Numbered from the stretch's first letter, positions 4,176-32,903 are shown. The stretch: DNA of 64,000 nucleotides from a virus (IMGVR_UViG_3300011242_000001:50439-114438), one strand, 5' to 3'. Translations and numbers: made by a program. The notes: generated by a model from the letters alone, not told the origin.

Positions 4176-5711
4176 TTACAATAAATTATAAACTTTGTTA
4201 AATTCATCATTATTGATTTTCATATTCATTTCAATTGCAGGTTTTAAGATTTTTTCAATCGCTGTAAACTTGTCAATCAAAATACCAATATTGTTTTTAG
4301 CTAGCTCATATTGCATTGCTGTTGTACGTGACAATGTTTGAGCCGCCAATAAATCATTTTTTCGTCGTAATAAACGTTGCTTATCACTATCCGAATATTG
4401 ATCATCTTGCATATAAGATTCTAATAATTTGATATCTTCATCAAATTGTGTATGTAAATCTTTTAATGAATCATATAATTTAGCAAATGATTCATATTGA
4501 TTGGATAATACAGTTACTAAATTACTGCCTTTGTCTAATAAATTTTCGAAGTCAATAACTGCAATTGTAATATTGGCCTTAATTTCAATGTCTGATTTAA
4601 ATATTTTGCCCCAAAAGCCAATAGTAGAATACTTTTTATATTTTTCTACTGCAGATTTAAGATTTACAATTACACTACTCATTCTTTCCAGGTTATCACT
4701 AGTAATTTCCATGGTAATTGTATTCATTTTATCGATAGTTGTTACACCAACTGCAAAAATACCGGTATTTGTATCCATATCTATTTCAGCCTTTTCTATT
4801 TGTTCATCAACAACTGTATTGTCGGGCTCTTTAAAAGTACCCATTAAGTTGTTATATTGTAGACTGTTTATAATAAGTTCGTACATACGTGGGCTAACAT
4901 AAAACTTAATTATTCTATCAAATAATTTTTTATGTTGCTCATTTAGCATAAAGTAGTCATATTCAATGCATCTTAATATAAAAACTCTAATGGCAGATAA
5001 ATCATTAGATCCACCTGTCATGTATATAAATGGAATATACTTATTTTGATTTAAAATAGATTCTATCTTATCTGGTCTAATGTCATCATTTAAAAATTCA
5101 GATATAAAGTTACAGTAATCGATGAGACCTTTATAGTCATCATTTACATAAAATCTTAAATTAATGATATCATTAATAATAGCAATATGTTTATGTAAAT
5201 CCCTACTTCTAGTTTGTTGTAAATTTCGCACATAACTTGAAATATATCCATCATTATAGCCAAACCCACTAATTTTATCTAAATTTTTAAATATGTCATT
5301 TATTGAAAGTGTGTTATACGTATGAAAATATGCAACTGTTTCCGAAGTAGGCTTCGTTTCATACATTGGTAAATGTAAAATAAAATCTTTGCTTATAAGT
5401 TTTGAAAATGTATGATATGTATAAATTTGATTAATATAATTGCGATATATTGTATCAGCAACATGATTTAAATCTTTTGCTTTGGTTGTTAAACAATATT
5501 TTAAAATTAAGGCCATACGTTTATGTAATGAGCTATTATCATCATACGAAATCGGATTTACAACAGCTGCATAAATATCGCCTAAAGCGGGCTTTAGATC
5601 ATTAGGTAAAGAATTAAAATGATATTCAATTTTGTCAGTCAAATAAAAGTTTTCATCACGAATATCGTAATGTATAAAAGATAGAAAATAAAAATATACA
5701 TGCATATTCAT
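4176..5711 (-). CDS. large hypothetical protein (511 aa)
   Basis: Long uninterrupted ORF directly upstream of the TelA-like gene on the same strand. Confidence 0.5.
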   Translation of the reverse strand: MNMHVYFYFLSFIHYDIRDENFYLTDKIEYHFNSLPNDLKPALGDIYAAVVNPISYDDNSSLHKRMALILKYCLTTKAKDLNHVADTIYRNYINQIYTYHTFSKLISKDFILHLPMYETKPTSETVAYFHTYNTLSINDIFKNLDKISGFGYNDGYISSYVRNLQQTRSRDLHKHIAIINDIINLRFYVNDDYKGLIDYCNFISEFLNDDIRPDKIESILNQNKYIPFIYMTGGSNDLSAIRVFILRCIEYDYFMLNEQHKKLFDRIIKFYVSPRMYELIINSLQYNNLMGTFKEPDNTVVDEQIEKAEIDMDTNTGIFAVGVTTIDKMNTITMEITSDNLERMSSVIVNLKSAVEKYKKYSTIGFWGKIFKSDIEIKANITIAVIDFENLLDKGSNLVTVLSNQYESFAKLYDSLKDLHTQFDEDIKLLESYMQDDQYSDSDKQRLLRRKNDLLAAQTLSRTTAMQYELAKNNIGILIDKFTAIEKILKPAIEMNMKINNDEFNKVYNLL

Positions 5712-5888
5712 GATAATTGCCTTATGATTTACGAATTTTTGATACGTCTAACTTTTTAATTTTTTCAAGATGATCTGATGCATTAATTGCATCTAAAAGA
5801 TTATTTGCATTTCGATTGCTACGATTAATCGCTTGCTTTAAAATAATTGGACCAGTCCCAATCGCTTGCATCATATTATATGTACTAT

Positions 5889-6353
5889 TCATTTTGATAA
5901 ATCCCGTGATAGTTTAGCCATTTTATTTTTAAAAGCCATATCATAAAGAGCTTCCGACGTTTGACCATATTTTTTAGTAATTAACGTATGAGCCTTAATA
6001 ATTGCTTCTTCATAAGTATAACCGCCACAATCAAGGTCTGTATCATGGGTTAAAGCAAACTTACGACCTTTTGTATATGCATATTCACTACTAGGAACGC
6101 TCCAATCAATTTCAAATGGGACTAATACTTCTACCCAATATTGTAAGGTATCATTTAAAGATGCATCATCTTCAATGCGATTAGTTTTTTTGCAAATAAG
6201 ATGAGGATCAATTAAAACAATAATTGTCTCTTCTGGATAAGCAAACAGAAATTTGTGGTGATTTTTAAGTTCCCACTCTTTTTTAATAAAGTCTTTAATT
6301 TCATCAATAGTCATAATAAAAAAGCTCGCTAAAATGTATATACATAATAACAA
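5889..6353 (-). CDS. hypothetical protein (true start possibly the internal Met MTIDEIK)
   Basis: 154-aa ORF. Confidence 0.4.
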   Translation of the reverse strand: MLLCIYILASFFIMTIDEIKDFIKKEWELKNHHKFLFAYPEETIIVLIDPHLICKKTNRIEDDASLNDTLQYWVEVLVPFEIDWSVPSSEYAYTKGRKFALTHDTDLDCGGYTYEEAIIKAHTLITKKYGQTSEALYDMAFKNKMAKLSRDLSK

Positions 6354-11082: not shown

Positions 11083-11104
11083 ATTAAGAATGACAGGAGC
11101 AAAC

Positions 11105-12352
11105 ATGAATACTCAAATTTCAGATTTGAAATTTCAAATAACACAGCTGCAGCAATCTATTAAAGATTTAGATGATGAGTGTGAACGATATTCAGCAATG
11201 GAACAAGCCGTAAAGATTGTTTTAAACGGTGGATATGGAGCATTAGGGGCAGCTGCATTTAGATGGTATGACGAAACAATTGCGGAAGGTATTACTGCAA
11301 CCGGCCGTGTCGGAATACAATATATTACTAAAAAAATTAATGAATTTGTAAATGAGAAAGCCGGAACAGCCGGCATCGACTATGTTGTAAGTTCTGATAC
11401 AGATTCAGTTTATTTTGAAGTTGACGCAATTGTAAAACATAGATGGCCCGAAGTTACCGATAAACAGCAAATTACTGATTTAGTAAATGAATTTGCTGAA
11501 AATGAAGCTGGACCATATATTGATCAATGCTATAAAGATCTTTCCGATTATCTAAATTGCGACGTAAATTTATTAGATATGAAGCGCGAAGCAATTGCTG
11601 ATACATTTATTATCAGGGCCAAGAAAAATTATATCATGCGAGTATTTGATAATGAAGGAATTCGTTATGCTGATCCGTATTATAAAATGATGGGTATTGA
11701 AGTTGTTCGTACATCTCACCCACAAATGATTCGTGACGCTTTAGAGGATACTTTAAAGATGGTAATTGAAGGATCAGTTGAACAAGTTCGATCATATGTA
11801 AAAGAATTTAAAGCAAAGTTTATGAATTCGCCATTAAATCAGATTGCTGCACCCCGCGGTATTTCCGATATTACAAAATATATGAATAGCGAAGATTATT
11901 CAATTAAAGAATTTGAATATGTTACTAATGAATTTGGTAATAAAGTTAAATCTAAAATTACTATTCCAATTCATGTAAGAGCTGCTATTAATTATAATTA
12001 CCTAGTTAATAAATATAAGTTATCAAATAAATTTGAATTTATTAAAAACGGTTCTAAAATTAAATTTTTGCCATTAAAAGAGCCGAATCCAATTAAGAGC
12101 CATGTAATTGGATTCATTGATAATATTCCAACTGAATTTGGTTTAGATGAGTTTATTGATAAAGAAGCTCATTTTAATAAAATGTTCATTAGTCCGCTAG
12201 AAACTTTCTTAATTTATAATGGATGGACAATCCAGGAAAATACCTTATTAGATATGTTCGGATCATCCGATATTGATATGGCGACAGCTGCAATTAATAC
12301 AAAGAAAAAGACAATAAAAAAAGTCGATAAAAAGACAACTTCATTGTTTTAA
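11105..12352 (+). CDS. 43: family-B DNA polymerase, C-terminal fragment (gp43 part B: fingers motif B, palm motif C, thumb)
   Basis: KIVLNGGYGALG (motif B, KxxxNSxYG) and VVSSDTDSVYFEV (motif C, DTDS) align to T4 gp43 INSLYGALGN...YGDTDSIYVS; GGAG RBS before ATG; N-terminal 40 aa heptad-like (QISDLKFQITQLQQSIKDLDDE). Confidence 0.85.
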   Translation: MNTQISDLKFQITQLQQSIKDLDDECERYSAMEQAVKIVLNGGYGALGAAAFRWYDETIAEGITATGRVGIQYITKKINEFVNEKAGTAGIDYVVSSDTDSVYFEVDAIVKHRWPEVTDKQQITDLVNEFAENEAGPYIDQCYKDLSDYLNCDVNLLDMKREAIADTFIIRAKKNYIMRVFDNEGIRYADPYYKMMGIEVVRTSHPQMIRDALEDTLKMVIEGSVEQVRSYVKEFKAKFMNSPLNQIAAPRGISDITKYMNSEDYSIKEFEYVTNEFGNKVKSKITIPIHVRAAINYNYLVNKYKLSNKFEFIKNGSKIKFLPLKEPNPIKSHVIGFIDNIPTEFGLDEFIDKEAHFNKMFISPLETFLIYNGWTIQENTLLDMFGSSDIDMATAAINTKKKTIKKVDKKTTSLF

Positions 12353-17210: not shown

Positions 17211-18236
17211 ATGATGAATATTTTAAATTTATCGGCTAAAGATATTTTAGCGATTAAAATATTTTCTGAAATGTTCACCGGAACAGAAGATGAAAATAAA
17301 AAAACATATCGTATGCTTTTAAAAAAATGGCATCCAGATATGAATAGTACGGATACAAGCGATGTATTTGTACATATTACACAATTGTATGATAGCTTAT
17401 CTATTAATATAATTCCGAAATCTGTAGAGATTAACGGCAAGTCATATGATTATATATATGATGTTGTAAAAGATTTATATACAATTTACTATACTGATAA
17501 TGGTACAGGATTTTTAATTAAGTTCAATCAAAAAGCAGATGGACTTAAACAAAATTATAAATCTAATTTAACTAAGCTTCAATCTTTATTGAAAAATCAT
17601 AAATTTGAAGATCGTTATAAAGATTTGTTATCTTGTAATATTTATGAAAATAAAGAATTTGCAAAAATCAGAGTACCTGCAGGTTATGTTCCTTTAAACC
17701 TGGCTTTAAAATATATTATATCTTTTAAAGATTGGAAAATTTCAGCATACATTATTTCGCGTTTATATGATACAGCGTTATTGTATAAAAATGCAGGTCT
17801 ATCATGTATCGGATTTGATCCTGATTTTATCTTTTTAGATACTAAAAAACATCAAATTATTGATTTATCAGCATTATTTTTCTCTACTGAGAGCAATAAA
17901 TCTTTAAGTCTTGCACTTACTCCAATGCAAGCATCCGCATTTATTAAAGATGACCTACAAAATAAAAAGTGTAGTGATGATTCTATTAATAGTATGATTA
18001 ATTCATTAGGCTTAATGTTATCAGGTGATTTAAATCGATTTGGTAATATTAATGTATTAGATGATTCTGCAAATAAAGAAATGGTTAAAATTATTAGTGG
18101 TATTGGTATTAATGTTCCAATTCGCAATAATTATGAAGCATGGCAAACTAAACTAGTACAACGTATTTTTAATGAAAGATCTTTTTATAAAAAAGAAATT
18201 GTATTTGGTGATTTAACAAAATATATTGGTAATTAA
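17211..18236 (+). CDS. J-domain (DnaJ-like) protein
   Basis: N-terminal segment KKTYRMLLKKWHPDMN...QLYDSL matches the J-domain helix II/III with an invariant HPD tripeptide; 341 aa. Confidence 0.6.
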   Translation: MMNILNLSAKDILAIKIFSEMFTGTEDENKKTYRMLLKKWHPDMNSTDTSDVFVHITQLYDSLSINIIPKSVEINGKSYDYIYDVVKDLYTIYYTDNGTGFLIKFNQKADGLKQNYKSNLTKLQSLLKNHKFEDRYKDLLSCNIYENKEFAKIRVPAGYVPLNLALKYIISFKDWKISAYIISRLYDTALLYKNAGLSCIGFDPDFIFLDTKKHQIIDLSALFFSTESNKSLSLALTPMQASAFIKDDLQNKKCSDDSINSMINSLGLMLSGDLNRFGNINVLDDSANKEMVKIISGIGINVPIRNNYEAWQTKLVQRIFNERSFYKKEIVFGDLTKYIGN

Positions 18237-20747: not shown

Positions 20748-21941
20748 ATGAACGTTGTTGTAATCGGCGCCAACTATGGTGATGAAGGTAAAGGTCGTAC
20801 TGTTGATTTTCTTGCCAAAGACTTTTGTGGGCTTGAAAATCGACCTACTCTGAATGTAAGATTTTCTGGTTCAAATAATGCAGCACATACCGTATGGCAT
20901 AATAATACATCATTTGTATTTCATATGTTAGGGGCTGCTTCTTTTCGTGGGCATCCAACATATTTGAGTCAACATGTTGTTGTTGATTTTGTTGCACTAG
21001 AAACAGAAATTAATGAATTTGAAAAAATTACTGGATTTAAACCAGTCGTTTATGTCGATCCGCGGTGCCGTATTAATCTGCCATATGATGTAATGAAAAA
21101 CCGTATTAAAGAAATTCTTAAAGGTAATGATAAACACGGTTCAACTGGTAATGGTCTAAATGAAACTATTGACCGGCATCAACGTCTTCCAATTTTAGCA
21201 GGTACATTTGAATTTGCATTACCTATGTTAATTCTCACACAAAGTGATTTTCAGCAATTTGTTGAAACTGAGTTAAAGGATATTGAATTAGAATATCGAC
21301 ATAAAGACTTTATTGAATTTTTATGTGAGAAAAATTCAGTATCGTTTATTTTTGATAAAATTAGACATATCCTTAATAATCATCCTCAAATTGTATGCGA
21401 TACACCAAATCTTAAAATTTATAACTGTATCTTTGAAGGGAGTCAAGGGTTAGCTTTAGATGAATATAGCAAATTTTTTCCTCATGTAACTCGTACACGT
21501 ACTGGTACAACAAATGTAATAGATTTATGCCGTGAGCATGATATTGTAATTGACAATGTATATTATGTATCACGACCGTATTTCAGCCGTCATGGTGCAG
21601 ACAAATACTTTGAAGAATTTGATAGAATTAGTGACGTTTATAACATTGTAGATGAAACTAATATACCAAATGACTGGCAAGATAATTTAAAATTTGGTAT
21701 TTTAAATGTAACTGAAATGGATGAACGTATTAATGATGACTTTAAAATCATTAAAAATTTATTCCCAAATGTAAATAAGCAGCTGGTGTTTACTTGTATG
21801 GATCAATGTGGCGGTGGGTCTGGTATTTATATTCGTAACGGTCGACTATATCAAACAAGCGATCTAATAAATTCATTAAATTTATATTATAGATTTAGTG
21901 ATATTAAACCAATCTTTTTTGATAATAAGGAAAATATATAA
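20748..21941 (+). CDS. adenylosuccinate synthetase (PurA) family homolog; candidate PurZ-like enzyme
   Basis: N-terminal NVVVIGANYGDEGKGRTVDFL matches the PurA P-loop GDEGKGK; GSNNAAHTV matches GGHNAGHT; FEGSQGLALDE matches FEGAQGTLLD; the C-terminal region is divergent; 397 aa. Confidence 0.65.
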   Translation: MNVVVIGANYGDEGKGRTVDFLAKDFCGLENRPTLNVRFSGSNNAAHTVWHNNTSFVFHMLGAASFRGHPTYLSQHVVVDFVALETEINEFEKITGFKPVVYVDPRCRINLPYDVMKNRIKEILKGNDKHGSTGNGLNETIDRHQRLPILAGTFEFALPMLILTQSDFQQFVETELKDIELEYRHKDFIEFLCEKNSVSFIFDKIRHILNNHPQIVCDTPNLKIYNCIFEGSQGLALDEYSKFFPHVTRTRTGTTNVIDLCREHDIVIDNVYYVSRPYFSRHGADKYFEEFDRISDVYNIVDETNIPNDWQDNLKFGILNVTEMDERINDDFKIIKNLFPNVNKQLVFTCMDQCGGGSGIYIRNGRLYQTSDLINSLNLYYRFSDIKPIFFDNKENI

Positions 21942-22834: not shown

Positions 22835-24769
22835 ATGTTTTATACATCAGTTGTAAAAATGGGAAATAATATTATTCACCGTTATATCAAAGATGGAAAG
22901 CGTTATCAAGAAATTATTAAGAATTTTGATTATGATTTATATGTGCGAAGCGAATATTCGCGAGACGCTTTAGATGTACATAAAAACCATTTAAAACGTT
23001 ATAATTTTGACAATATTTATGATATGAGTCAATTTATTAATGAAAATGGTAATGACAATGTTTATGGTAATACTGATCCAGTAACACAATTTATAGCAAA
23101 AACATATCCTGATGAAATTAAATTAACTAATGATTATGTAGTTCTAAACTTCGATATTGAGACCGAACACGGCGAAGGCTTTATCAAATATAAAGACCCT
23201 CATATTATCCAGGTTCAAGAAGATAAAAATGAACCAATTAAAATGGCATTGGGTGAATTTAAAAAGATCGATCTAAATGTACATGAATATCATGTATATG
23301 ATGAAGAAAAAAAAGATTGGCTTCTTTATGAAAATTCATGTTATGCGCCGCAACAACTAGGATTCCCAGACCCAAATTTAGCTTTATACCAGGTAATGTC
23401 GGTATCATTAATTTCATCTTTAGAAAATATAATTTATGTATATGGTACTAAAGAATTTAAAGGTGCACGCACAATTGAAGGATCTGATTATACTATTCGT
23501 CATATTTATTGCGCAAATGAAAAAGAACTTTTAGTTAAATTTATTCAGAAATGGCGTGAAATTAAACCTGATATTTTAACTGGCTGGAATGTTGAAGGAT
23601 TCGACGTACCATATATTATTAATCGTATTGTGCGTGTACTTGGTAAAAAGTTTGCTAATATGCTTAGCCCATTTGCTAATGAATCACAAAACTGTATTCG
23701 CGAACGCCAAAAAGAAGATGCCGTTTATTATAGTATTTCAGGTATTACCATTTACGATTACCTGTCTGTATATAAAAAGTTCTCGCGTGAAAAACGTGAA
23801 AGCTATAAATTAGACTGGATTGGTAAAGTAGAAGTAGACCATCAAAAGATTTCATATGACGAATATGATAATTCACTAATGAAATTATGGGAATACGATT
23901 ATGATAAATTCATTCTATATAATGCTATCGATACATTAATTGTTAATAAGCTAGATAAGAAATTAAAGTTTATTAATCTTGCAATTACGATTGCTCATAT
24001 TACTAAATCAGATTTAAGTGATGCTTTAGGTACCATTAAAATTTGGGATAATATGATTTATAACTTACTACGTAAGCGCGATATTCAAATTCCACCAAAT
24101 ATCAAACAAGAAAAATCTAAAGAATTCTTGGGTGCATTTGTAAAAGAGCCATTACTTGGTCGACATGGTTGGACTTTAACATTCGATTTAACATCGCTAT
24201 ATCCAAGTATTATTCGTATGTTAGGTATGTCACCGGAAACACTTATTGATCGTGAAATTGGTAATGATTTCACTGCAAATAGTGCCGTGCGAAAAGTTAT
24301 TAAATCCAATATGGATATTGTTGCCAATATTATTATGGACGGTGAATTTGGCACAGATAATGAATTATCAGAAGATTTATATATTCTTAAACGATTTGAA
24401 TCAGCCGATGTTAATAAAATTAAATCATTAGATAAAAATACAATGATTTATGTTTTACAAGAATTACGTCGGGCAGATGAATATTATAATTCTGGTCATA
24501 ATCATATTCATGGTGTTAAAACAGTATTAGAAAATGTTGAAAACTTTATTAATATGGTGACCGATCTTTCTTGGGCTAAAGAAAAAAATGTCACTGTAGC
24601 AGGTAATGGTTCAACATATGATAAATCCACTGAAGGCGTAATTCCTGAAGCGATGACTCACTTATTCAATTACCGTAAACTACTTAAGAATAAGATGAAG
24701 GAAGAAAAGAAAAAATTACAGCTAAAAATTGAAGAGCTACATAAGTTAGAATCACAGCTAACATCTTAA
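22835..24769 (+). CDS. 43: family-B DNA polymerase, N-terminal fragment (gp43 part A: 3'-5' exonuclease domain and palm motif A)
   Basis: MFYTSVVKMGNNIIHRYI matches T4 MKEFYISIETVGNNIVERYI; FDIETE exo I; LTGWNVEGFDVPYIINRI matches LTGWNVESFAIPYVYNRI; GAFVKEPLLG...FDLTSLYPSIIR matches GAFVKEPIP...FDLTSLYPSIIR (motif A); ends with a coiled-coil-like tail KKKLQLKIEELHKLESQL; GGAG RBS. Confidence 0.85.
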   Translation: MFYTSVVKMGNNIIHRYIKDGKRYQEIIKNFDYDLYVRSEYSRDALDVHKNHLKRYNFDNIYDMSQFINENGNDNVYGNTDPVTQFIAKTYPDEIKLTNDYVVLNFDIETEHGEGFIKYKDPHIIQVQEDKNEPIKMALGEFKKIDLNVHEYHVYDEEKKDWLLYENSCYAPQQLGFPDPNLALYQVMSVSLISSLENIIYVYGTKEFKGARTIEGSDYTIRHIYCANEKELLVKFIQKWREIKPDILTGWNVEGFDVPYIINRIVRVLGKKFANMLSPFANESQNCIRERQKEDAVYYSISGITIYDYLSVYKKFSREKRESYKLDWIGKVEVDHQKISYDEYDNSLMKLWEYDYDKFILYNAIDTLIVNKLDKKLKFINLAITIAHITKSDLSDALGTIKIWDNMIYNLLRKRDIQIPPNIKQEKSKEFLGAFVKEPLLGRHGWTLTFDLTSLYPSIIRMLGMSPETLIDREIGNDFTANSAVRKVIKSNMDIVANIIMDGEFGTDNELSEDLYILKRFESADVNKIKSLDKNTMIYVLQELRRADEYYNSGHNHIHGVKTVLENVENFINMVTDLSWAKEKNVTVAGNGSTYDKSTEGVIPEAMTHLFNYRKLLKNKMKEEKKKLQLKIEELHKLESQLTS

Positions 24770-24774
24770 AAAAA

Positions 24775-24796
24775 GGACCGCAAGGTCCTTTTTTAT
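24775..24796 (+). terminator. rho-independent terminator
   Basis: GGACC-gcaa-GGTCC plus TTTTTT. Confidence 0.6.
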
Positions 24797-24855
24797 TGTA
24801 CTTACAATTATATACGCGATACAATTTATATAAATTAATGATAGAGATCATACAA

Positions 24856-25494
24856 ATGAATATTCCGCACGAAGTATATCAATTATTAGCAATTCTTAAA
24901 GAATATAATCCGCTATTGGTTGGCGGATGTGTGCGTGACTATTTAATGGGTAATGAGCCACATGATTATGATTTAGTTGTGCCACATGTACATCACCAAA
25001 TGCTGCTTGAAATAATTGAAGCTGGATGGCAAACTAAATTAACCGAAAATAATGACACAGAAATTTGGAATGTAACCAAAAAATTTCCGGTATATGATAC
25101 TATCTATTATAAAGGTTCACCTATCAATTATGTTAAAGGCGAAAAATCTTATGTAATTGAGTTGCTTTCATATAGAGGCGAAACATTAAGCGATGATGCA
25201 TCTAATCGCGACTTAACAGTTAATTCGTTATATTATGATTATTTTAATGATAAAATATTTGACCCGACTGGTCGTGGATTGGAAGATATTCAAAATAAAG
25301 TTGTTCGCTTTAATAATAAGCAAGTAGTGGAAAAAGATCCATTGCGTATTATGAGAGCATATCGTTTCGCTAAAAAATTTAATTTTACTATTGAAGATAA
25401 AAGCCTAAAACTATGTAGAAATGGATTTGATTCAATGATTAAAGAAATAAGCCCAACCAGAATACTTAAAGAAATTGAAAAACTTTGTCTATAA
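24856..25494 (+). CDS. class II CCA-adding / poly(A) polymerase-type nucleotidyltransferase, head+neck domains only
   Basis: LLVGGCVRDYLMGNEPHDYDLVV matches GGAVRDxLLG..xDxD; NRDLTVNSLYYD...FDPTGRGLEDI...DPLRIMRAYRFA matches RRDLTINALA...IDPxxGLxDL...EDPLRxLRxxRFA; no HD body domain; start taken at ATG rather than the track's TTG inside the terminator. Confidence 0.6.
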   Translation: MNIPHEVYQLLAILKEYNPLLVGGCVRDYLMGNEPHDYDLVVPHVHHQMLLEIIEAGWQTKLTENNDTEIWNVTKKFPVYDTIYYKGSPINYVKGEKSYVIELLSYRGETLSDDASNRDLTVNSLYYDYFNDKIFDPTGRGLEDIQNKVVRFNNKQVVEKDPLRIMRAYRFAKKFNFTIEDKSLKLCRNGFDSMIKEISPTRILKEIEKLCL

Positions 25495-25509: not shown

Positions 25510-26082
25510 ATGTTAACTTTTGATCAAACATTTGAAGATGGCGATGATGTACAATATGTATTAAAGGATAACTCATATCATTGTGGCGTTGGTACTGTAA
25601 AGTTTTCTAATAATGAATTCGCCGGTATTATTGTAAATAGTAAAATATTTTATGCACCACATAAAATTTATGCTATGCATCACCATAGCCGTGACTTTGA
25701 TTTAGGTCGTTATCTTAAAAAAATTGAACTTCCTATTAAAGCACAAGAATATATTTTTGATGAATATAAAAATGTAGATACATCTAAATTACAATTAATG
25801 GACTTTGAATCCGACTATATTCATCATACACCGTTTCAGCGGGTATTATTTGAACAGTCATATTGGGATAAATCTCATTTAGAACATGTCAATTGGTTTG
25901 CTCCATCTGCATGTTATTACCCAAAAGGATGGTATAACCTGGGTGGTGAAAGAAGTGAAGAAAGCGATACTATTGGCGAACAAGTTGATTGGCAGTGGCA
26001 AGCGTGGCGAAATGCACTTTTACAAAATATGTGGCTCGACACTATTAAAGTAGAAAAAGTTACATATCAGGTATTAGTATGA
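25510..26082 (+). CDS. hypothetical protein
   Basis: GGAG RBS; 190 aa; overlaps the downstream gene (ATGA). Confidence 0.45.
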   Translation: MLTFDQTFEDGDDVQYVLKDNSYHCGVGTVKFSNNEFAGIIVNSKIFYAPHKIYAMHHHSRDFDLGRYLKKIELPIKAQEYIFDEYKNVDTSKLQLMDFESDYIHHTPFQRVLFEQSYWDKSHLEHVNWFAPSACYYPKGWYNLGGERSEESDTIGEQVDWQWQAWRNALLQNMWLDTIKVEKVTYQVLV

Positions 26083-26522
26083 AAAATATTGATGTTAGAA
26101 ATTTTAATTTTAAAGTTAAAAATTATTCAATTCATAATGCTATTCAACAAATAGATAATAAAGAACTGTTATTGCAATATTATAATGGTAAAAAATCCAC
26201 TGATTGGGATAATGTTCAAAAAAGCAAATATATTGAATCTATTCTAATTCGGGCGCCTGTTACACCCATTATTTTATATAATGACTTTAATAATCATATA
26301 GTAATTGATGGCCTTAATCGATTAAATGCTTTATATGAATATATGAATAATGAATTCGAACTTACAGGTTTGGATTTTTTGTTGGAGTTTAATAATAATA
26401 AATATTCTGATTTTGGCCGAGCATTCCAACGGCGCATTGAAGAAACTCAAATAATTATTCATGTCATAGAATGTTACAATGAGAATGGATTAGCAAATAT
26501 ATTAATAAATAGATATTTTTAA
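26079..26522 (+). CDS. DUF262 / ParB-like nuclease-domain protein (N-terminal GmrSD-type domain)
   Basis: APVTPIILYNDFNNHIVIDGLNRLNALYEY resembles the DUF262 core (PIP..IDGQQRLTAL); 147 aa. Confidence 0.45.
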   Translation: MKNIDVRNFNFKVKNYSIHNAIQQIDNKELLLQYYNGKKSTDWDNVQKSKYIESILIRAPVTPIILYNDFNNHIVIDGLNRLNALYEYMNNEFELTGLDFLLEFNNNKYSDFGRAFQRRIEETQIIIHVIECYNENGLANILINRYF

Positions 26523-27029: not shown

Positions 27030-27099
27030 TTGTATATACACATATAATTTTTTATATTATAATATCTCCATACAATATAAATCTTGATGGAGATATGCA

Positions 27100-27450
27100 A
27101 TGAACATTACTATTAAAGCTAAACCTGTAAAATATTCTGCAGCGACTAAACAAGCGTTACTTAGCAAAATTGATAGACAATTTAGTTACTCTGGTGGTGC
27201 CTTAGTTGGATTGTTTGATTATAACCGTAATGTAGTTCGTGTTTATAATCTTCATAAAATTAATGCAAAATATGATCATAGCGCAAAATTTAAAAGCGGG
27301 CCTCGTAAAGGACAACGTAAGCCAAGCGTAAAAGTGCGCGATAGCCAATGGATTGCCTATGTATATGATTTAGATCGTACATTACTTAATCTCGCTAAAT
27401 TACAAGTTACTCAAAACCACCGCAATTTTACTATTAAATCTCGGAACTAA
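27100..27450 (+). CDS. hypothetical basic protein
   Basis: GGAG RBS; 116 aa. Confidence 0.4.
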   Translation: MNITIKAKPVKYSAATKQALLSKIDRQFSYSGGALVGLFDYNRNVVRVYNLHKINAKYDHSAKFKSGPRKGQRKPSVKVRDSQWIAYVYDLDRTLLNLAKLQVTQNHRNFTIKSRN

Positions 27451-27451
27451 T

Positions 27452-28069
27452 ATGTCATATCATAAATTAAAAATTTGTAAACATCATGTCGGCAGCCCAT
27501 GGAAATTACAAGAAGAAGTTCTTGAATACATTGATGCTGTATCAAATGATAATCCTGTTATGGCAGCTAATGAGTTATCTGATTTATATGGTGTCATTGA
27601 AGAAGAAGCTAAAAAATACGGTCTGACAATGGATAATTTAAAAACCATGTCAGACTTAACAAAGCAAGTATTTAATAGCGGGCATCGCAAAGGCATGTCT
27701 TTATATGAAGATATTAAAGCTAATGCTATTAAAGTTGGTTTTATCGACGATTTAGCTATTGCATTTATGCCAAACGAATTTGTATATCTTTTTGTTAAAG
27801 ATGGACAATCTTATTCAGATGATATTACAGAAATGCAAATTGTAGTAGAAACAATTAAAGGCGAATGTCATATTACAGATGGCTCAAATAATGAAAATCA
27901 TCTAAAATTAAATGTACAAATGCTATTAATTGACTCGCCCACTACAGAGATTTATTTTGCAGACAATACTATTATTAAATTTAAAGCATTTAACGGCCAA
28001 TTATTAAATGCAGAATTTGATGCTGATGAAGAAGCACTTTTTTATATTAAATCGGTATGTGAGGCTTAA
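27452..28069 (+). CDS. hypothetical protein with possible N-terminal MazG/HisE-like all-alpha NTP pyrophosphatase segment
   Basis: LQEEVLEYIDAV...ANELSDLYGVIEEEAKKYGL resembles the EExxE...ExxD MazG signature; weak. Confidence 0.3.
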   Translation: MSYHKLKICKHHVGSPWKLQEEVLEYIDAVSNDNPVMAANELSDLYGVIEEEAKKYGLTMDNLKTMSDLTKQVFNSGHRKGMSLYEDIKANAIKVGFIDDLAIAFMPNEFVYLFVKDGQSYSDDITEMQIVVETIKGECHITDGSNNENHLKLNVQMLLIDSPTTEIYFADNTIIKFKAFNGQLLNAEFDADEEALFYIKSVCEA

Positions 28070-28630
28070 ATGAGTAATATTAGCGCATCATTATTATATT
28101 CAGCAATGACATTTTTTAAGAACGCTGGATATCATTTTATTACTGTTCCAATGTTAATCGATGAAGATGTTATTCGCCTTACATTACCACCTGATCGATT
28201 ACCAAAATTTCATAACAATAAATGTTATGTTGGAAGTGCTGAACAATCAATTTACCAACTTATTAAAGAAGGTAAAGATTTACCTCCTAAATTATTAGCT
28301 ATTACACCATGCCAACGCGACGAAATGGTTCTTGATGAATTACATCAAGAAATATTTTTAAAAATTGAGTTGGCGTGTACTGATAATACTATTACATATC
28401 GTGATATTGCAAATGATGTAATGAATTTTTATAGTCAATTTACAGATAAAGCAAAAATTGTTGATTTTGTAGACTTTGATAATAGCTGCGATATCGAAAT
28501 TGGTGGTATCGAAGTTGGTAGTTATGGACAGCGTGAGTATAAAGGCCGCACTATTCATTTTGGAACAGGTGTAGCATTACCGCGTTTAGCTCAAGCACTT
28601 AATAAACTAATGGTTAATGAAAATGAATAA
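28070..28630 (+). CDS. minimal class II aminoacyl-tRNA-synthetase-like catalytic core (AsnA/EpmA-like ligase)
   Basis: YHFITVPMLIDE (motif 1-like), CQRDEMVLDELHQEIFLKIEL (motif 2-like FRxE...H.EF..E), HFGTGVALPRL (motif 3-like GxGxGxxRL); 186 aa. Confidence 0.45.
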   Translation: MSNISASLLYSAMTFFKNAGYHFITVPMLIDEDVIRLTLPPDRLPKFHNNKCYVGSAEQSIYQLIKEGKDLPPKLLAITPCQRDEMVLDELHQEIFLKIELACTDNTITYRDIANDVMNFYSQFTDKAKIVDFVDFDNSCDIEIGGIEVGSYGQREYKGRTIHFGTGVALPRLAQALNKLMVNENE

Positions 28631-28829
28631 TCATAGAATTATTAGATTTTTAAAAGTATATTCTATTTTTAATGGTGGTATATATGATGAGTCGACAAAA
28701 AATTTGTCGGACCATTATGAAATATATATAGATATATATCCAGAAGAATCTAATAATCCTAAACAAGAATTCGATCAAATGAAAGAATTTATATTAGCAA
28801 AAAAATGGAACACATATGCGAAACGTTAA
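28617..28829 (+). CDS. small hypothetical protein
   Basis: 70-aa ORF overlapping both neighbours. Confidence 0.3.
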   Translation: MKMNNHRIIRFLKVYSIFNGGIYDESTKNLSDHYEIYIDIYPEESNNPKQEFDQMKEFILAKKWNTYAKR

Positions 28830-29343
28830 ACAATTAATTACTAGTATTGAATCTGGTAATGATCACGAATATATTTATTTTTGGGGACACCAAGGTAGTA
28901 AAAAAGGTTGTTTAAGCCAATGGTTTGAATCAAGTTTTGTTATTAATGGTGTAACATATAAAACAGCTGAACATTGGATGATGGCTCAAAAAGCCAGACT
29001 ATTCGGCGATGCCACATTAGCAAATCAAATTGTACAATGCAGACACCCGCGTGATGCAAAACAATTAGGGCGGGCCGTTAGAAAATTCAATAATGATATT
29101 TGGAATAAACATAAATTTGCATATGTTGTCGATGGTAATATCGCTAAATTTCAGCAAAATCCTTCACTAAAGAAATTTTTATTATCTACTGGTAATAAAG
29201 TGATTGTAGAGTCATCTCCTGTTGATTCTATTTGGGGTGTTGGTTTGCATATGACAAATCCTGATATTAATAATCCTACTAAATGGAAAGGCGAAAATTT
29301 ATTAGGATTTGCTTTGATGGAAGTTCGGGAACAATTAAAATGA
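28816..29343 (+). CDS. NADAR (YbiA-like, DUF1768) domain protein
   Basis: FWGHQ...SQWF...TAEHWMMAQKARLFGD...LGRAVRKF...SPVDSIWGVG...GENLLGFALMEVR matches the YbiA/NADAR pattern along its length. Confidence 0.65.
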   Translation: MRNVKQLITSIESGNDHEYIYFWGHQGSKKGCLSQWFESSFVINGVTYKTAEHWMMAQKARLFGDATLANQIVQCRHPRDAKQLGRAVRKFNNDIWNKHKFAYVVDGNIAKFQQNPSLKKFLLSTGNKVIVESSPVDSIWGVGLHMTNPDINNPTKWKGENLLGFALMEVREQLK

Positions 29344-29750
29344 GTAATCGTGAACATTATCAAATAGAAGCAAATGAATATTTTAATAAGCCCTTTAATA
29401 TAGATGACTTTATTGAAAAACTTTGCTCATACGATGATAAATGGGCGTGGGTAATTTTTGTAGGTAATTTCACGCGTTATGTTGATTCCAGAAGTTTTTG
29501 GGAGTTCATGTTCCTGGGTGAAGAGCCTAGCGACAATCATAAGCAAAATACCAAAATTGATATTATCAAAGAATTTATGATTAAAATCATGAATCAAGAT
29601 AATATCTACCTATTACAATTTGTAATTACAGGTCTTGCCCCTATACGATATTATGTTCGTGAAGAATATAAACAAATGCAATTGGATTTTAATAAAATAG
29701 TCAATAAAAACTGTTTTACTAATATACATTTATATACAAGAGTTAATTAA
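29340..29750 (+). CDS. hypothetical protein
   Basis: ATGA overlap with NADAR; 136 aa from this start. Confidence 0.4.
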   Translation: MSNREHYQIEANEYFNKPFNIDDFIEKLCSYDDKWAWVIFVGNFTRYVDSRSFWEFMFLGEEPSDNHKQNTKIDIIKEFMIKIMNQDNIYLLQFVITGLAPIRYYVREEYKQMQLDFNKIVNKNCFTNIHLYTRVN

Positions 29751-29879
29751 ATTAGAATTAGATAATATTAAATCTAAACTAACTCAAATAATACCGCATT
29801 AATAAAATTTAAAAATGTATATACATTTTTAAATTATTGTATTATAATTTCTTTATTATATGTACAAAGAGATTATACT

Positions 29880-30428: not shown

Positions 30429-31031
30429 ATGTTCGATTTATTTTTACACCATCAAAACATGCCATTTAGTATTGCAATTGCAGTCGCATTATTAATTGGT
30501 CTTGTTGAAATCATTAGTCTATTATTAGGCGGATTAGTTAGTATTGATAGTATTATCCCTGAAAAAGATATTGGGGTTGATGCAGATATTAATGGATTTT
30601 CAGTTGTCGATTATCTTTGTATCGGTAAAATACCATTATTAATGTGGTTAGTTGTATTTCTATTGTCATTTGGTATTATTGGTATTATTTTCCAATCAAT
30701 ATTTGCATTAAATTCAACAGTTGCTGCTATTATTGTATTATTCATCTCTGCATTCCCTGTTCGATATATATCGTTATTGTTGCAAAAAATTGTTCCTAAA
30801 GATGAAACAACTGCAATATATGATATTGATTTTATTGGATATAAAGCGGAAATTATCCTTGGTACTGCACGTCGTAATTATCCAGCCCAAGCTAAGTTTA
30901 AAGATGTTCACAATCAAACACATTATGTAATGGTTGAACCTTTATCAGATACAGATGAATTTGTTACTGGTGATACTGTTGTCTTATATGAGAAAAAAGG
31001 CACAATTTTTCTTGTATCGGATTATAAATAA
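30429..31031 (+). CDS. NfeD/YqiJ-like membrane protein (TM helices plus C-terminal OB-fold)
   Basis: Three to four hydrophobic helices followed by a beta-rich C-terminus; located immediately upstream of a flotillin gene, as in the bacterial yqiJ-yqiK / nfeD-floT pairs; AAGGA RBS. Confidence 0.5.
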   Translation: MFDLFLHHQNMPFSIAIAVALLIGLVEIISLLLGGLVSIDSIIPEKDIGVDADINGFSVVDYLCIGKIPLLMWLVVFLLSFGIIGIIFQSIFALNSTVAAIIVLFISAFPVRYISLLLQKIVPKDETTAIYDIDFIGYKAEIILGTARRNYPAQAKFKDVHNQTHYVMVEPLSDTDEFVTGDTVVLYEKKGTIFLVSDYK

Positions 31032-31121: not shown

Positions 31122-32903
31122 ATGCCAAATCTTATGAACATTTTAATTATTGCGGGAATTATCGTCGCTGGTATTATTATCATGGGTGTCATTATCGCCC
31201 GACTATATAAGCGCTCAACAAAAGAAGTTTCTTTCGTTCGTACCGGTTGGGGCGGAGAAAAAGTAATTCTAAATGGTGGTGCAGTCGTTCTACCAGTATT
31301 GCATGAAATTATCAATGTAAATATGAATACACTTCGTCTTGAAGTATCACGTATTAATGAACAATCATTAATTACTAAAGATCGTATGCGTGTTGATGTT
31401 CAAGCTGAATTCTACGTTCGTGTTAAACCAACTGCTGAATCTATTGCTGCAGCTGCACAAACATTAGGTCGTAAAACAATGTCTCCACAAGAATTGAAAA
31501 ATCTTGTAGAAGGTAAATTTGTTGATGCTCTTCGCTCTGTAGCAGCTGAAATGGATATGGAAGAATTGCATGAAAAACGTACCGACTTTGTTCAAAAAGT
31601 ACAGCAAGCTGTTACTGAAGACTTAACTAAAAACGGTCTTGAACTTGAAACTGTATCTCTTACTGGTCTTGACCAAACTGATGTACGTCATTTCAATCCT
31701 CAAAACGCATTTGATGCTGAAGGTCTTACTAAACTTACTGAAACAATTGAAGATCGTCGTAAAAAACGTAATGAAATTGAACAGAATACTGATCTTGCGG
31801 TTAAAACCAAAAATCTTGAAACTGAACAAGCTCGTCTGCAAATTATTCGTGAAGAAGAATATGCTAAGATGGAACAACAACGCGAACTATCTAATCGTCG
31901 TGCTGCTCAACAAGCTGAAATTGCAATGCAAGAAGCTGAAAAGCAACGTGAATCTGAAGAAGCTCGTATTGCTGCACAGCGTGAAGTTGAATTAAAACAA
32001 ATTGCTGCTCAACGTGATATTGATAATGAAAATATCTTAAAAGAGCAACAAATTCAAAAAGCGAAAGTTGAACAAAAGAAAACTATTGAAATTGCTGAAC
32101 AAGATAAAGCCATTGCGATCGCTCAAAAATCACAAGCTGAATCTGAAGCAAAAGCAAAAGCTGACTTGGCACGTGCCGAAGCAGTAAAAGCTGAAGAAGA
32201 AGTAATCACAGTTCGCCAAATCCAACAAGCAGAACGTCAAAAATCTGTAGAATTGGTACAAGCCAAAGAAAAAGCTGAAAAAGAAGCGATTGCAATTACT
32301 GTTGCGGCTGAAGCAGATAAAAAAGCTGCTACTGACCGTGCTGAAGCTACTCAAATTGCATCATCTGCACAAGCTGAATCGATTCGTATTGCTGCTAAAG
32401 CAAATGCTGATAAAGAAGCGATTGCAATCACTGTAGTTGCAACTGCAGAAAAAAATGCAGCTCAAGCTCGTGCTGATGCTCGATTACTTGAATCTAAAGC
32501 TCAATCTGAATCTGAAATTCTTCTTGCTGATGCGGCAGAACGTAAATATGCAGTTGATGCAGCTGGTAAACGCGAATTGAACGAAGCGGATAACTTACTA
32601 TCTGCAGAACAAATCGCAATGAAAATTAAGCTTGAACTTATCAAAGCTCTTCCAGAAATTATCGCTCAAAGCGTTAAGCCAATGGAAAACATTGAAGGTA
32701 TCAAAATTCTACAAGTTAATGGTCTAACTGGTGGCCAATCTGGTGGTGATACTGTTGAAGGTGAATCTACTAACTTGGCAGATCAAATGACTAACTCAGC
32801 ACTTCGATACCGTGCGCAAGCTCCATTAGTTGATTCACTAATGACTGAACTTGGTATCAAAGGTGGTGACATCAACGGTTTTACTAAAGGTCTAAATGAC
32901 TAA
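31122..32903 (+). CDS. flotillin-like SPFH/band-7 protein (YqiK/FloT family)
   Basis: N-terminal TM helix; SPFH core (EVSFVRTGWGGEKVILNGGAVVLPVLHEI...RVDVQAEFYVRV); about 300 aa of Ala/Glu/Lys-rich coiled coil (AEAKAKAD, EKAEKEAIAIT repeats); 593 aa. Confidence 0.7.
   Translation: MPNLMNILIIAGIIVAGIIIMGVIIARLYKRSTKEVSFVRTGWGGEKVILNGGAVVLPVLHEIINVNMNTLRLEVSRINEQSLITKDRMRVDVQAEFYVRVKPTAESIAAAAQTLGRKTMSPQELKNLVEGKFVDALRSVAAEMDMEELHEKRTDFVQKVQQAVTEDLTKNGLELETVSLTGLDQTDVRHFNPQNAFDAEGLTKLTETIEDRRKKRNEIEQNTDLAVKTKNLETEQARLQIIREEEYAKMEQQRELSNRRAAQQAEIAMQEAEKQRESEEARIAAQREVELKQIAAQRDIDNENILKEQQIQKAKVEQKKTIEIAEQDKAIAIAQKSQAESEAKAKADLARAEAVKAEEEVITVRQIQQAERQKSVELVQAKEKAEKEAIAITVAAEADKKAATDRAEATQIASSAQAESIRIAAKANADKEAIAITVVATAEKNAAQARADARLLESKAQSESEILLADAAERKYAVDAAGKRELNEADNLLSAEQIAMKIKLELIKALPEIIAQSVKPMENIEGIKILQVNGLTGGQSGGDTVEGESTNLADQMTNSALRYRAQAPLVDSLMTELGIKGGDINGFTKGLND

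Follow-up and report, generated by a model that had tools for sequence, protein, structure and literature searches.

Does a run of five tightly packed genes in a phage genome encode one biochemical module, or do only some of its products work together? This question is raised by positions 27452-29750 of a 64,000-nucleotide stretch of viral DNA (the window), where the original prediction had seen a single nucleic acid modification or anti-defense cassette that unites a minimal class II aminoacyl-tRNA synthetase (aaRS)-like ligase with a NADAR domain protein. Judging from sequence comparisons, we find that among the five genes only the N-terminal domain of the first protein (A, residues 1-80) and the second protein (B) are a conserved unit. 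These two, encoded either side by side, in many cases with translational coupling, or as a single fusion protein, may well be the functional unit in place of the five-gene chain and would then make up a two-part enzyme, a proposal to which we give about an even chance of being right.

Gene chain and transcription signals

All five open reading frames (ORFs) of the chain, which is part of what is described as a jumbo phage, were confirmed on the plus strand: A (27452-28069; 205 aa), B (28070-28630; 186 aa), C (28617-28829; 70 aa), D (28816-29343; 175 aa), and E (29340-29750; 136 aa). A longer form of E starting from an alternative in-frame ATG at 29283 lacks support from relatives. The packing is as tight as originally described, but chaining by ATGA or TAATG overlaps does not hold throughout: A and B abut without any overlap, the TAA of A being followed by the ATG of B in a shared reading frame, the B/C and C/D overlaps each span 14 nt, and an ATGA overlap is found only at the D/E junction. 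Another plus-strand ORF of 116 aa (27100-27450) stops 1 nt 5' of A, and we count it to the same chain because of this position.

Two plus-strand copies of a promoter-like motif, TGTATATACA-N17-TATAAT, flank the chain, one 5' of it at 27031-27063 and the next one at 29816-29848 at the start of the following unit. The motif presumably acts as a promoter; it occurs in 8 plus-strand copies in the window, compared to 0.02 expected by chance, and the copy at 27031-27063 also scores 10/12 as a sigma-70-like match. A search of the chain for terminators gave a sole terminator-like match inside B, at chance level, and nothing convincing internally. From the bracketing motifs and the adjacency of the 116-aa ORF we infer a six-gene transcription unit (27100-29750) that probably starts one gene earlier than previously thought, with the 116-aa ORF as its probable first gene. 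Flanked by promoter-like motifs and free of convincing internal terminators, the genes of the chain are probably co-transcribed.

Tight chains of same-strand ORFs are, however, ordinary in phage genomes and uninformative on their own, and the information of this locus lies in its domain content. No GenBank phage matched the region by megablast. The lineage of the window is not among the sequenced phages, and related sequences come from metagenomic contigs that reach ~380 kb.

NADAR and the other chain genes are not part of the conserved unit

The assignment of D as a NADAR protein is firmly supported: it matches the Pfam NADAR family (PF08719) over profile positions 1-163 of 163 with an E-value of 1.6e-56 and 191.5 bits (cut-off 35.1), it also matches phrog_1017, and it is homologous to the solved structure 8bau (E 3e-19) as well as to E. 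coli YbiA (PDB 2b3w; E 3e-10). D is thus a full-length, YbiA-like NADAR protein with nothing unusual about it. According to the original prediction, this enzyme would aid the aaRS-like ligase within one nucleic acid modification or anti-defense cassette, for example by reversing DarT ADP-ribosylation. Such a role would fit the tight chaining and probable co-transcription of the five genes, the gene order shared by near relatives, and three unrelated contigs (L061, L074, and L097) in which a NADAR gene lies close to a B homologue, no more than a few genes away. Yet the cassette is not kept outside close relatives. Across 83 unrelated loci with B homologues from IMG/VR and GenBank, an A domain is present in 74, NADAR in 2, and C and E in none, and NADAR, C, and E are missing beside most A-B pairs and beside all A-B fusions. 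Even the syntenic relatives L088-L090 have their NADAR gene cut to the last 40 residues while A, B, C, and E are intact, and NADAR of the phrog_1017 type is a common stand-alone phage gene. With co-conservation failing in this way, a single five-gene module is very hard to uphold, and we regard it as highly improbable. D would instead be an independent ADP-ribose-related enzyme within a probably shared transcription unit.

The remaining parts of the chain are clade-specific passengers. C and E match no Pfam or PHROG family; C is found in near relatives with 37-48% identity, and E is 86% identical in L088-L090 while giving no tblastn match in L086 and L087. The 116-aa ORF likewise has no Pfam or PHROG match and is conserved only in near relatives. 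The same applies to the C-terminal extension of A (residues 81-205; 27692-28069), which has no match in Pfam or the PDB and is confined to the clade of the window; relatives in Phab24-type Acinetobacter phages have a different and longer version.

B is a minimal catalytic core derived from seryl-tRNA synthetase

B (phrog_4806) had been read as a class II aaRS-like protein with motifs 1-3 that lacks an anticodon-binding domain, and this reading is borne out in full. The structure predicted for 28070-28630 (pLDDT 95) adopts the antiparallel beta-sheet core fold of class II aaRSs, the motifs PML, QRDE…H.EIF..IE, and GTGVALPRL are found in the sequence, the class II motifs (the proline of motif 1, fRxE…F of motif 2, and GxGxGxxR of motif 3) are conserved across 63 homologues, and B lacks any anticodon- or tRNA-binding domain. 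Which synthetase the family comes from is revealed by a family profile and not by single-sequence searches. Phmmer with B alone gave no match in the PDB, the sole Pfam match, tRNA-synt_2d, stays under its cut-off (E 0.004), and B falls below the Pfam and NCBIfam thresholds of every aaRS model, including Pfam tRNA-synt_2b and NCBIfam serS, with zero matches in NCBIfam overall. Profile alignments with Aquifex seryl-tRNA synthetase (SerRS; PDB 2dq3) and with an archaeal SerRS from L095 pair VGSAEQS of B with PTAEVP/GTSEQA of SerRS, TPCxRDE with TPCYRRE, and FLKxEL with FDKVEL, and these SerRS-paired positions are invariant among the 63 homologues. The SerRS-type active site, a class IIa site, is complete in B with TxE, TPCFRxE, FxKxE, ExxS, and G(S/T)G…R, the latter as part of a shared GTGxAxPR. 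P27 of motif 1 is nearly invariant, F96 and T166 are invariant, and so are the ATP- and Mg-binding positions, i.e., R83 of motif 2, E148, S151, and R172 of motif 3, despite the diversity of the homologues. Based on these residues, B has most likely kept the ability to bind ATP together with serine, or with a small alpha-amino acid much like it, and to make an aminoacyl-adenylate.

SerRS proteins have ~420-440 residues compared to the 186 of B, which lacks the N-terminal coiled-coil tRNA-binding arm (Seryl_tRNA_N) and aligns to the SerRS core with 184 of its 186 aa; PF02403 is present in the bona fide SerRS genes of L091 and L095. The motif-2 loop of B is also ~6 residues shorter than that of SerRS. 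E. coli SerRS deprived of this arm no longer charges tRNA-Ser efficiently. Because the arm for tRNA-Ser recognition is lost and the motif-2 loop is shortened, B does not qualify as a canonical tRNA synthetase. It would instead activate serine or a similar amino acid as adenylate without using a tRNA-Ser arm, and the activated group would then probably be passed to a non-canonical acceptor or to the 3' end of an RNA that is recognized in a different way. An identity as HisRS or HisZ, as implied by the annotation "histidyl tRNA synthetase" in PHROG and in RefSeq, was rejected since the motifs are SerRS-like and not HisRS-like. The family comprises ~1,450 clusters at 50% identity, and some members have an N-terminal helix-hairpin-helix domain resembling the C-terminal domain of RNA polymerase alpha (a PF03118 match was precomputed for P0086 only, and the other proteins were assigned by eye from their N-terminal similarity).

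A carries a HisE/MazG-like domain that is probably shared with the anti-defense protein Atd1

Residues 1-80 of A (27452-27691) match phrog_6408 (E 5e-20) and constitute a HisE/MazG-like all-alpha nucleoside polyphosphate pyrophosphohydrolase domain. The MazG-like N-terminus suspected earlier is supported and can be described more precisely as HisE/PRA-PH-like: PRA-PH, the family of HisE, is the closest Pfam family and is matched by 36 of 45 A relatives (best E 2.8e-5), while MazG is matched by 7. The A protein of the window itself reaches E 0.086 and 13.7 bits against PRA-PH, below the cut-off of 21.3, and the family profile matches HisE chains in the PDB with E-values of 0.16-0.3. Eleven residues are invariant among the 45 relatives (Y3, H4, K18, E21, E22, E25, E41, D44, T70, F74, and R79), and they include E22-x-x-E25 and E41-x-x-D44 of an EExxE…ExxD arrangement that corresponds to the EXXE-(12-28 residues)-EXXD metal-binding signature of all-alpha NTP pyrophosphohydrolases. 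In a model of a fusion protein of the two domains, the signature residues fall on predicted helices at positions 202-217 and 221-242. It seems plausible from this signature that A is a Mg2+-dependent pyrophosphohydrolase of the HisE/MazG type with a nucleoside polyphosphate as substrate. We also considered A as the MazZ partner of the PurA/PurZ-like gene at 20748-21941 of the window, but discarded this as a general account, since A-B pairs prevail in groups of phages that are not known to carry PurZ.

The acidic signature also separates the pair from the SerRS-like amino acid:[carrier protein] ligases (e.g., Bll0957, PDB 3mey), given that A is no carrier protein and has this motif in place of an invariant serine for phosphopantetheine. 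Most members of the A family are stand-alone proteins of 80-90 aa, and one of them is very probably Atd1, an anti-TIR defense protein of Pectobacterium phage PcCB7V that was described as a MazG-like ORF of <200 aa within 4 genes of an NTase (bioRxiv 10.1101/2022.06.09.495361). According to this preprint, which is not peer reviewed, Atd1 hydrolyzes ppGpp (Km ~50 uM), does not act on NTPs, and gives protection from TIR-STING and from retron-TIR; the protein was studied alone, and the word synthetase is absent from the text (bioRxiv 10.1101/2022.06.09.495361). We assigned Atd1 to the A family by gene position and not by a published sequence: PcCB7V has a single annotated candidate, QQG33500.1, a member of the A family that has 86 aa, is encoded two genes from the NTase, and is 97.7% identical to the homologue CB7_173 of vB_PatM_CB7. 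Three genes beyond QQG33500.1, PcCB7V encodes a B homologue. Compared to Atd1, the A protein of the window is larger (205 aa) and has an extra domain.

The two domains are neighbors or fused in phages, giant viruses, and cells

The original prediction had missed the conserved partner of the aaRS-like protein, the adjacent MazG-like domain that is often fused to it. At the 74 loci with both, the A domain is found ≤5 kb from B and mostly abuts or overlaps it; 9 of the 83 loci have no A domain within 5 kb. SerRS, by contrast, has no HisE/MazG-like partner. Among GenBank phage records, A is present in 258 and B in 276, with the same genera in both sets. In addition, we detected ~67 fusion proteins with the order B-to-A, and fusions of the reverse order also exist (P0361 and P0116). 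The natural fusion P0160, modeled from a 67-row alignment of fusion proteins, gave a pLDDT of 95 and a pTM of 0.90, and this model indicates that the two domains are held in a fixed mutual arrangement. Since the domains are so often fused, separately encoded A and B proteins probably form a complex as well, and its subunits would either share a nucleotide or nucleic acid substrate or carry out consecutive steps. Carriers of the pair or its fusion include phages, giant-virus bins, and the tiny symbiotic microbes of the CPR and DPANN groups.

An aaRS paralogue without anticodon domain next to a nucleotide enzyme is reminiscent of HisZ with HisG and HisE, and HisZ is a strong structural match of B. 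By analogy, B could be a catalytically silent regulatory subunit, as HisZ is for HisG, whose sensing of serine or ATP toggles the pyrophosphatase A. The HisE family membership of A and the tight physical coupling evident from the fusions are what one would expect of such a regulator-enzyme pair. HisZ is HisRS-like, however, while B has SerRS-like motifs with the catalytic residues kept, and the invariance of R83, E148, S151, and R172 would be unusual for a purely regulatory paralogue. Atd1, if rightly assigned to the A family, is moreover active alone in vitro, and we consider this regulatory role of B improbable. No HisG-like gene was found among the examined genes adjoining the pair.

Gene neighborhoods and candidate functions of the pair

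The genes around the pair follow two trends, one toward tRNA and RNA repair (CCA-adding enzyme, Pth, YqeY, and Rnl1) and the other toward nucleotide metabolism (NrdD/NrdG, NrdR, ThyA/DHFR/NDK, AAA_28 kinase, and radical SAM). All-against-all clustering of the ORFs of 86 loci for a third conserved partner gave no other real family in >9 loci, and two larger clusters proved to be artefacts of antisense-strand ORFs. An NTase gene was seen in 8 loci.

The first trend is seen in the window itself, where a CCA-adding enzyme is encoded at 24796-25494, and extends to 9 loci with a CCA-adding enzyme. PcCB7V has a CCA-adding enzyme and a peptidyl-tRNA hydrolase near the pair, phi92 encodes a YqeY/GatB-like protein directly 3' of B (the only YqeY-like gene seen), and in L100 Rnl1 and an HD_4 domain precede a fusion. 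These recurrent tRNA-related neighbors, together with the ppGpp hydrolysis and the protection from TIR-STING and retron-TIR described for Atd1 in the preprint, fit a module that maintains translation against the stringent response. In such a module, B would be a helper seryl-tRNA synthetase or a sensor of uncharged tRNA acceptor ends in the style of GCN2 or HisZ, while A would remove (p)ppGpp and thereby blunt the starvation or abortive infection response of the host. The full SerRS motif set kept by B and the helix-hairpin-helix N-terminus of some B proteins are compatible with this role. On the other hand, a helper synthetase is difficult to reconcile with the missing SerRS arm, the shortened motif-2 loop, and a window in which no tRNA genes were found, and a sensor would have no need for invariant catalytic residues. 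Some fusions are found in CPR and DPANN genomes with a canonical SerRS gene at a distance of 2-5 kb. Others come from giant-virus-like contigs that carry eukaryote-type genes; no ppGpp would be expected there, so that it cannot be the universal substrate of A. On balance, an anti-stringent role of the pair appears rather doubtful.

The second trend extends to cellular genomes. All four of the CPR and DPANN contigs that we inspected have a radical SAM gene (227-256 aa) abutting or overlapping the B-A fusion, and in two archaeal contigs an AAA_28 gene is located 5' of the fusion. The radical SAM proteins of CPR and archaea are mutually homologous (E 1e-13 to 1e-15), and their best family matches are the nucleotide-using radical SAM enzymes MoaA, viperin, and NrdG. 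In phage contig L104, A and B are followed by NrdD … NrdG, and the junctions overlap. There are precedents for partnerships with radical SAM proteins: EpmA (PoxA/GenX), a LysRS paralogue and stand-alone class II core that ligates an amino acid to a non-tRNA acceptor, works with the genetically linked radical SAM protein EpmB, and RaSEA is the radical SAM partner of ArcS. These observations could mean that the pair makes or processes an amino acid-nucleotide conjugate, with a small radical SAM protein and the kinase-like AAA_28 added in the cellular versions and the two core steps kept by phages. Against such a modified-nucleotide pathway stands the absence of a radical SAM homologue from the window and from all phage loci searched. 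The radical SAM protein beside the fusion matches no equivalog model, the pathway has no nameable product, and no base modification is known to be common to the phage hosts, so that we view it as unlikely.

In a further reading, to which we give clearly less than an even chance, the A-B pair would be a previously unrecognized and very widely distributed two-domain enzyme of tailed phages, giant viruses, CPR bacteria, and DPANN archaea: the SerRS-derived core would aminoacylate or adenylylate a non-tRNA acceptor, either a nucleotide or the end of an RNA or DNA, that is bound or processed by the HisE/MazG-like domain, and in cells this step would feed a radical SAM reaction.

Implications

Full-text literature searches retrieved no functional study of the SerRS-like gene and no account of the A-B pairing, but only homology-based annotations (e.g., for phage RXM). 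We rate the pair as an uncharacterized two-domain enzyme that is a variant of a known theme, the stand-alone aaRS paralogue. Unexpected chemistry has been found time and again in aaRS cores that stand alone (AsnA, HisZ, EpmA, and carrier protein ligases). The B family is larger than most such stand-alone cores, and its 276 sequenced phage genomes include therapeutic-candidate phages of Acinetobacter and E. coli. Database labels of its members as "seryl-" or "histidyl-tRNA synthetase" are probably wrong. The pairing also bears on the work on Atd1, whose ppGpp hydrolysis and anti-TIR activity were interpreted without the conserved neighbor B. Pairing and fusion with A make the function of B directly testable, and the radical SAM adjacency in CPR and DPANN genomes offers a second approach. 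In phages, A and B would probably sustain nucleotide and translation metabolism under the stress of infection. If B indeed serves a non-tRNA acceptor, the family would represent a new function of aaRS paralogues and possibly reveal a new amino acid-nucleotide metabolite or modification.

Genomic setting of the gene chain

The window has a G+C content of ~30% and carries T4-type replication genes encoding UvsX, topoisomerase II, DNA ligase, a Dda-like helicase, and a split family-B polymerase. Megablast of the region found no near-identical relative among GenBank phages, and metagenomic contigs of up to ~380 kb encode proteins 90% to 98% identical to B, the class II aminoacyl-tRNA synthetase (aaRS)-like core of the gene chain; the window thus most plausibly comes from the genome of an uncultured, T4-like jumbo phage. 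The two polymerase halves lie ~10 kb apart in swapped order, with the C-terminal half (11090-12352; phrog_262 positions 496-853) upstream of the N-terminal exonuclease half (22835-24769; phrog_262 positions 9-504). Other products include a TelA-like toxic-anion-resistance protein (2803-4104, minus strand; Pfam E 4.9e-80), a DnaJ-domain protein (17211-18236), and a divergent adenylosuccinate-synthetase-family protein (20748-21941; Pfam PF00709, E 6.5e-36; phrog_1211, the PurZ-type family) whose nearest phage relatives are of the Vibrio phage Va1 type (36% identity); identity as PurZ would imply 2-aminoadenine DNA. A GmrSD N-terminal (DUF262-like) domain, with no nuclease domain, makes up the whole of a 147-aa protein (26079-26522; Pfam E 1.2e-7, slightly under the cut-off), which is kept in syntenic relatives and might serve as a decoy for type IV restriction or inhibit it.

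All five predicted plus-strand ORFs are present: A (27452-28069), B (28070-28630), C (28617-28829), D (28816-29343), and E (29340-29750). The proposed chaining by ATGA/TAATG overlaps holds for D and E, which share ATGA, and B/C and C/D overlap by 14 nt each, but A and B abut without overlap. These two genes occupy one reading frame with a single TAA codon between them (27452-28630), an arrangement that can be set beside the natural A-to-B fusions found elsewhere. A sixth plus-strand ORF (27100-27450) ends 1 nt before the start of A. The promoter-like motif TGTATATACA-N(13-17)-TATAAT occurs in 8 plus-strand copies in the window (15370, 20321, 20684, 27031, 29816, 34655, 38572, and 52508), where chance alone would give 0.02. 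The copies at 27031 and 29816, the two that were checked, fall into intergenic gaps flanking the chain and share the form TGTATATACA-N17-TATAAT. These copies probably bracket a six-gene transcription unit, and no convincing terminator lies inside the chain. Directly downstream of the chain lies a pair of genes unusual in a phage and retained in relatives, encoding a YqiJ/NfeD-like membrane protein (30429-31031) followed by a flotillin/SPFH protein (31122-32903).

The conserved unit is a pair, not a five-gene cassette

Every protein of the neighborhood was queried against 83 loci with B homologues (80 IMG/VR contigs and 3 GenBank phages). The A domain was found at 74 of them, NADAR (D) at 2, and C and E at none. 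Where present, A usually sits immediately upstream of B, the codons at the junction overlapping or abutting, and in a few loci immediately downstream. Clustering of all neighboring ORFs revealed no third conserved real gene family beside the two. Among GenBank phage records, the A domain (258) and B (276) are almost equally frequent by genus (for example, A/B: Escherichia 113/112, Caulobacter 13/13, Pectobacterium 10/10). Synteny holds in near relatives of the window; in three of them (L088-L090), NADAR is cut to its last 40 residues with A, B, C, and E intact, and another (L086; GCA_040383985.1) has a 1.7-kb insertion between A and B (locus positions 4283-5964). Three genes make up this insertion, a possible mobile element: one of 369 aa, one of 72 aa, and one of 100 aa on the opposite strand. 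Based on these distributions, the A-E cassette is a lineage-specific arrangement, and the conserved unit consists of the first 80 residues of A, A(1-80), together with B.

The original prediction had proposed that all five genes form one nucleotide or nucleic acid modification or anti-defense module. Its assignment of D as NADAR/YbiA-like is well founded, given a full-length Pfam match (E 1.6e-56) and homology to YbiA and to the NADAR structure 8bau. However, the five genes are not co-conserved, so the cassette itself is essentially refuted. C, E, and the 27100 ORF match no Pfam or PHROG family. Accessory genes are commonly clustered in large phages, and NADAR is best regarded as a separate ADP-ribose-related enzyme within the operon.

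Natural fusions tie the two conserved partners together physically. At two IMG/VR loci, B and A form a single polypeptide; a database search seeded with one of these retrieved ~67 full-length B-to-A fusions of 260 to 318 aa, and the reverse A-to-B order occurs in P0361 and P0116. Fusions reside on phage contigs, on contigs carrying giant-virus-type genes, and on large contigs of CPR and DPANN that also have housekeeping genes.

A HisE/MazG-type partner of a SerRS-derived core

A(1-80) matches phrog_6408. The residues invariant among 45 relatives (Y3, H4, K18, E21, E22, E25, E41, D44, T70, F74, and R79) contain the EExxE…ExxD metal-binding signature of all-alpha NTP pyrophosphohydrolases, bearing out the suspected MazG-like N-terminus: Pfam PRA-PH (HisE) is matched by 36 of these relatives and MazG by 7, with the protein of the window scoring under the Pfam cut-off. 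Residues 81-205 are an extension confined to the clade of the window, and Pfam and PDB searches detected no relative of known fold for it.

B matches phrog_4806 (E 1e-45) and no curated aaRS model of Pfam or NCBIfam above threshold. A profile of its family (63 homologues) matches seryl-tRNA synthetase (SerRS) and PylRS structures in the PDB (E 4e-5 to 1e-4), and its AlphaFold model reaches a pLDDT of 95.1, which together with the motifs supports the predicted class II core without a tRNA- or anticodon-binding domain. In profile alignments, the invariant residues of the 63 homologues align with SerRS motifs: S56-A-E58 (VGSAEQS) with TxE, TPCxR83-D-E with TPCFRxE (motif 2), F96-x-K98-x-E100 with FxKVE, E148-x-x-S151 with ExxS, and G-T166-G…P-R172 with motif 3. 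In SerRS structures, the counterparts of this set contact ATP and Mg2+ as well as serine, through its amino and hydroxyl groups, and their conservation suggests that B has kept the capacity to make seryl-adenylate or a similar compound. Unlike SerRS, B lacks the N-terminal coiled coil that recognizes tRNA-Ser, and the motif-2 loop of SerRS is ~6 residues longer than its own. B is a core derived from SerRS rather than a SerRS itself, and the name "histidyl tRNA synthetase" given to it in databases finds no support. An exhaustive HMM search gave 1,457 representative clusters at E<=1e-10 and only 1,661 at E<=1e-3, which separates the family sharply from canonical synthetases.

One subfamily (P0086, P0288, P0333, P0388, and P0309) carries an RNAP-alpha-CTD-like helix-hairpin-helix domain N-terminal to B; the PF03118 match was precomputed for P0086 only, and the other four were grouped by eye from similar N-termini. 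This domain hints at contact with nucleic acid or RNAP. A HisZ-like regulatory role for B, a core whose ATP- and Mg2+-binding positions are invariant among the 63 homologues, strikes us as very improbable.

Gene context and possible substrates

Genome papers and records label the pair by homology only, as MazG and SerRS in phage RXM and as "MazG-type fold" and "putative seryl-tRNA synthetase" in phi92; full-text literature searches found no study of B or of its pairing with A. A preprint (10.1101/2022.06.09.495361) describes Atd1 of Pectobacterium phage PcCB7V as a MazG-like ORF of <200 aa lying at most four genes from an NTase. According to the preprint, which makes no mention of a synthetase, Atd1 hydrolyzes ppGpp (Km ~50 uM) but not NTPs and counters TIR-STING and retron-TIR toxicity. 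QQG33500.1, an A-family protein of 86 aa, is the only annotated pyrophosphatase near this NTase, and its position suggests that Atd1 belongs to the A family. The PcCB7V homologue of B is encoded three genes beyond QQG33500.1.

The pair might be an anti-stringent, tRNA-directed module. Besides Atd1, a CCA-adding enzyme gene lies 2.5 kb upstream in the window and is present in 9 loci, PcCB7V encodes a CCA-adding enzyme and a peptidyl-tRNA hydrolase, a YqeY/GatB-like gene directly follows B in phi92, and T4 Rnl1 and HD_4 domain genes precede the fusion in one locus (L100). The tRNA-Ser-recognizing coiled coil is missing from B, and overall we consider this module possible but unlikely. ppGpp as a universal substrate is ruled out because some members reside on contigs with giant-virus-type genes.

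Other neighbors point to nucleotide metabolism. A phage contig (L104) has the order A, B, NrdD … NrdG with overlapping junctions, and NrdR, ThyA, DHFR, uridine kinase, NDK, NAMPT, and Nudix genes are found elsewhere. Each of the four CPR or DPANN contigs examined has a small radical SAM gene (227 to 256 aa, CNAxCxFC motif) that abuts or overlaps the B-A fusion (L091 5234-6004, L093 6791-7474, L095 6808-7509, and L102 4791-5474). The bacterial and archaeal proteins are mutually homologous and resemble MoaA, viperin, and NrdG, with no match to an NCBIfam equivalog. Two of these contigs carry a canonical SerRS 2 to 5 kb away, and two archaeal contigs have a kinase-like AAA_28 gene ahead of the fusion. 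A modified-nucleotide pathway involving radical SAM chemistry would fit these neighborhoods, and no radical SAM relative is found in the window or the phage loci; we find this reading more doubtful than the tRNA-directed one. For the pair, gene context supports a role at RNA ends or on tRNA as well as one in a nucleotide pathway.

Implications

The best-supported reading, to which we give about an even chance, is that A and B form a two-part enzyme in which a SerRS-derived, adenylate-forming core would be physically coupled to a HisE/MazG-type pyrophosphohydrolase, with the core having lost canonical recognition of tRNA-Ser. As a kind of protein, stand-alone class II cores are already known. 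A SerRS-derived mini-core with an obligate, often fused HisE/MazG partner, spread over phages, giant-virus-like contigs, CPR, and DPANN and linked to radical SAM in cellular genomes, is undescribed in the literature we found. The structural and comparative evidence for the pair is strong, and its function is now directly testable.
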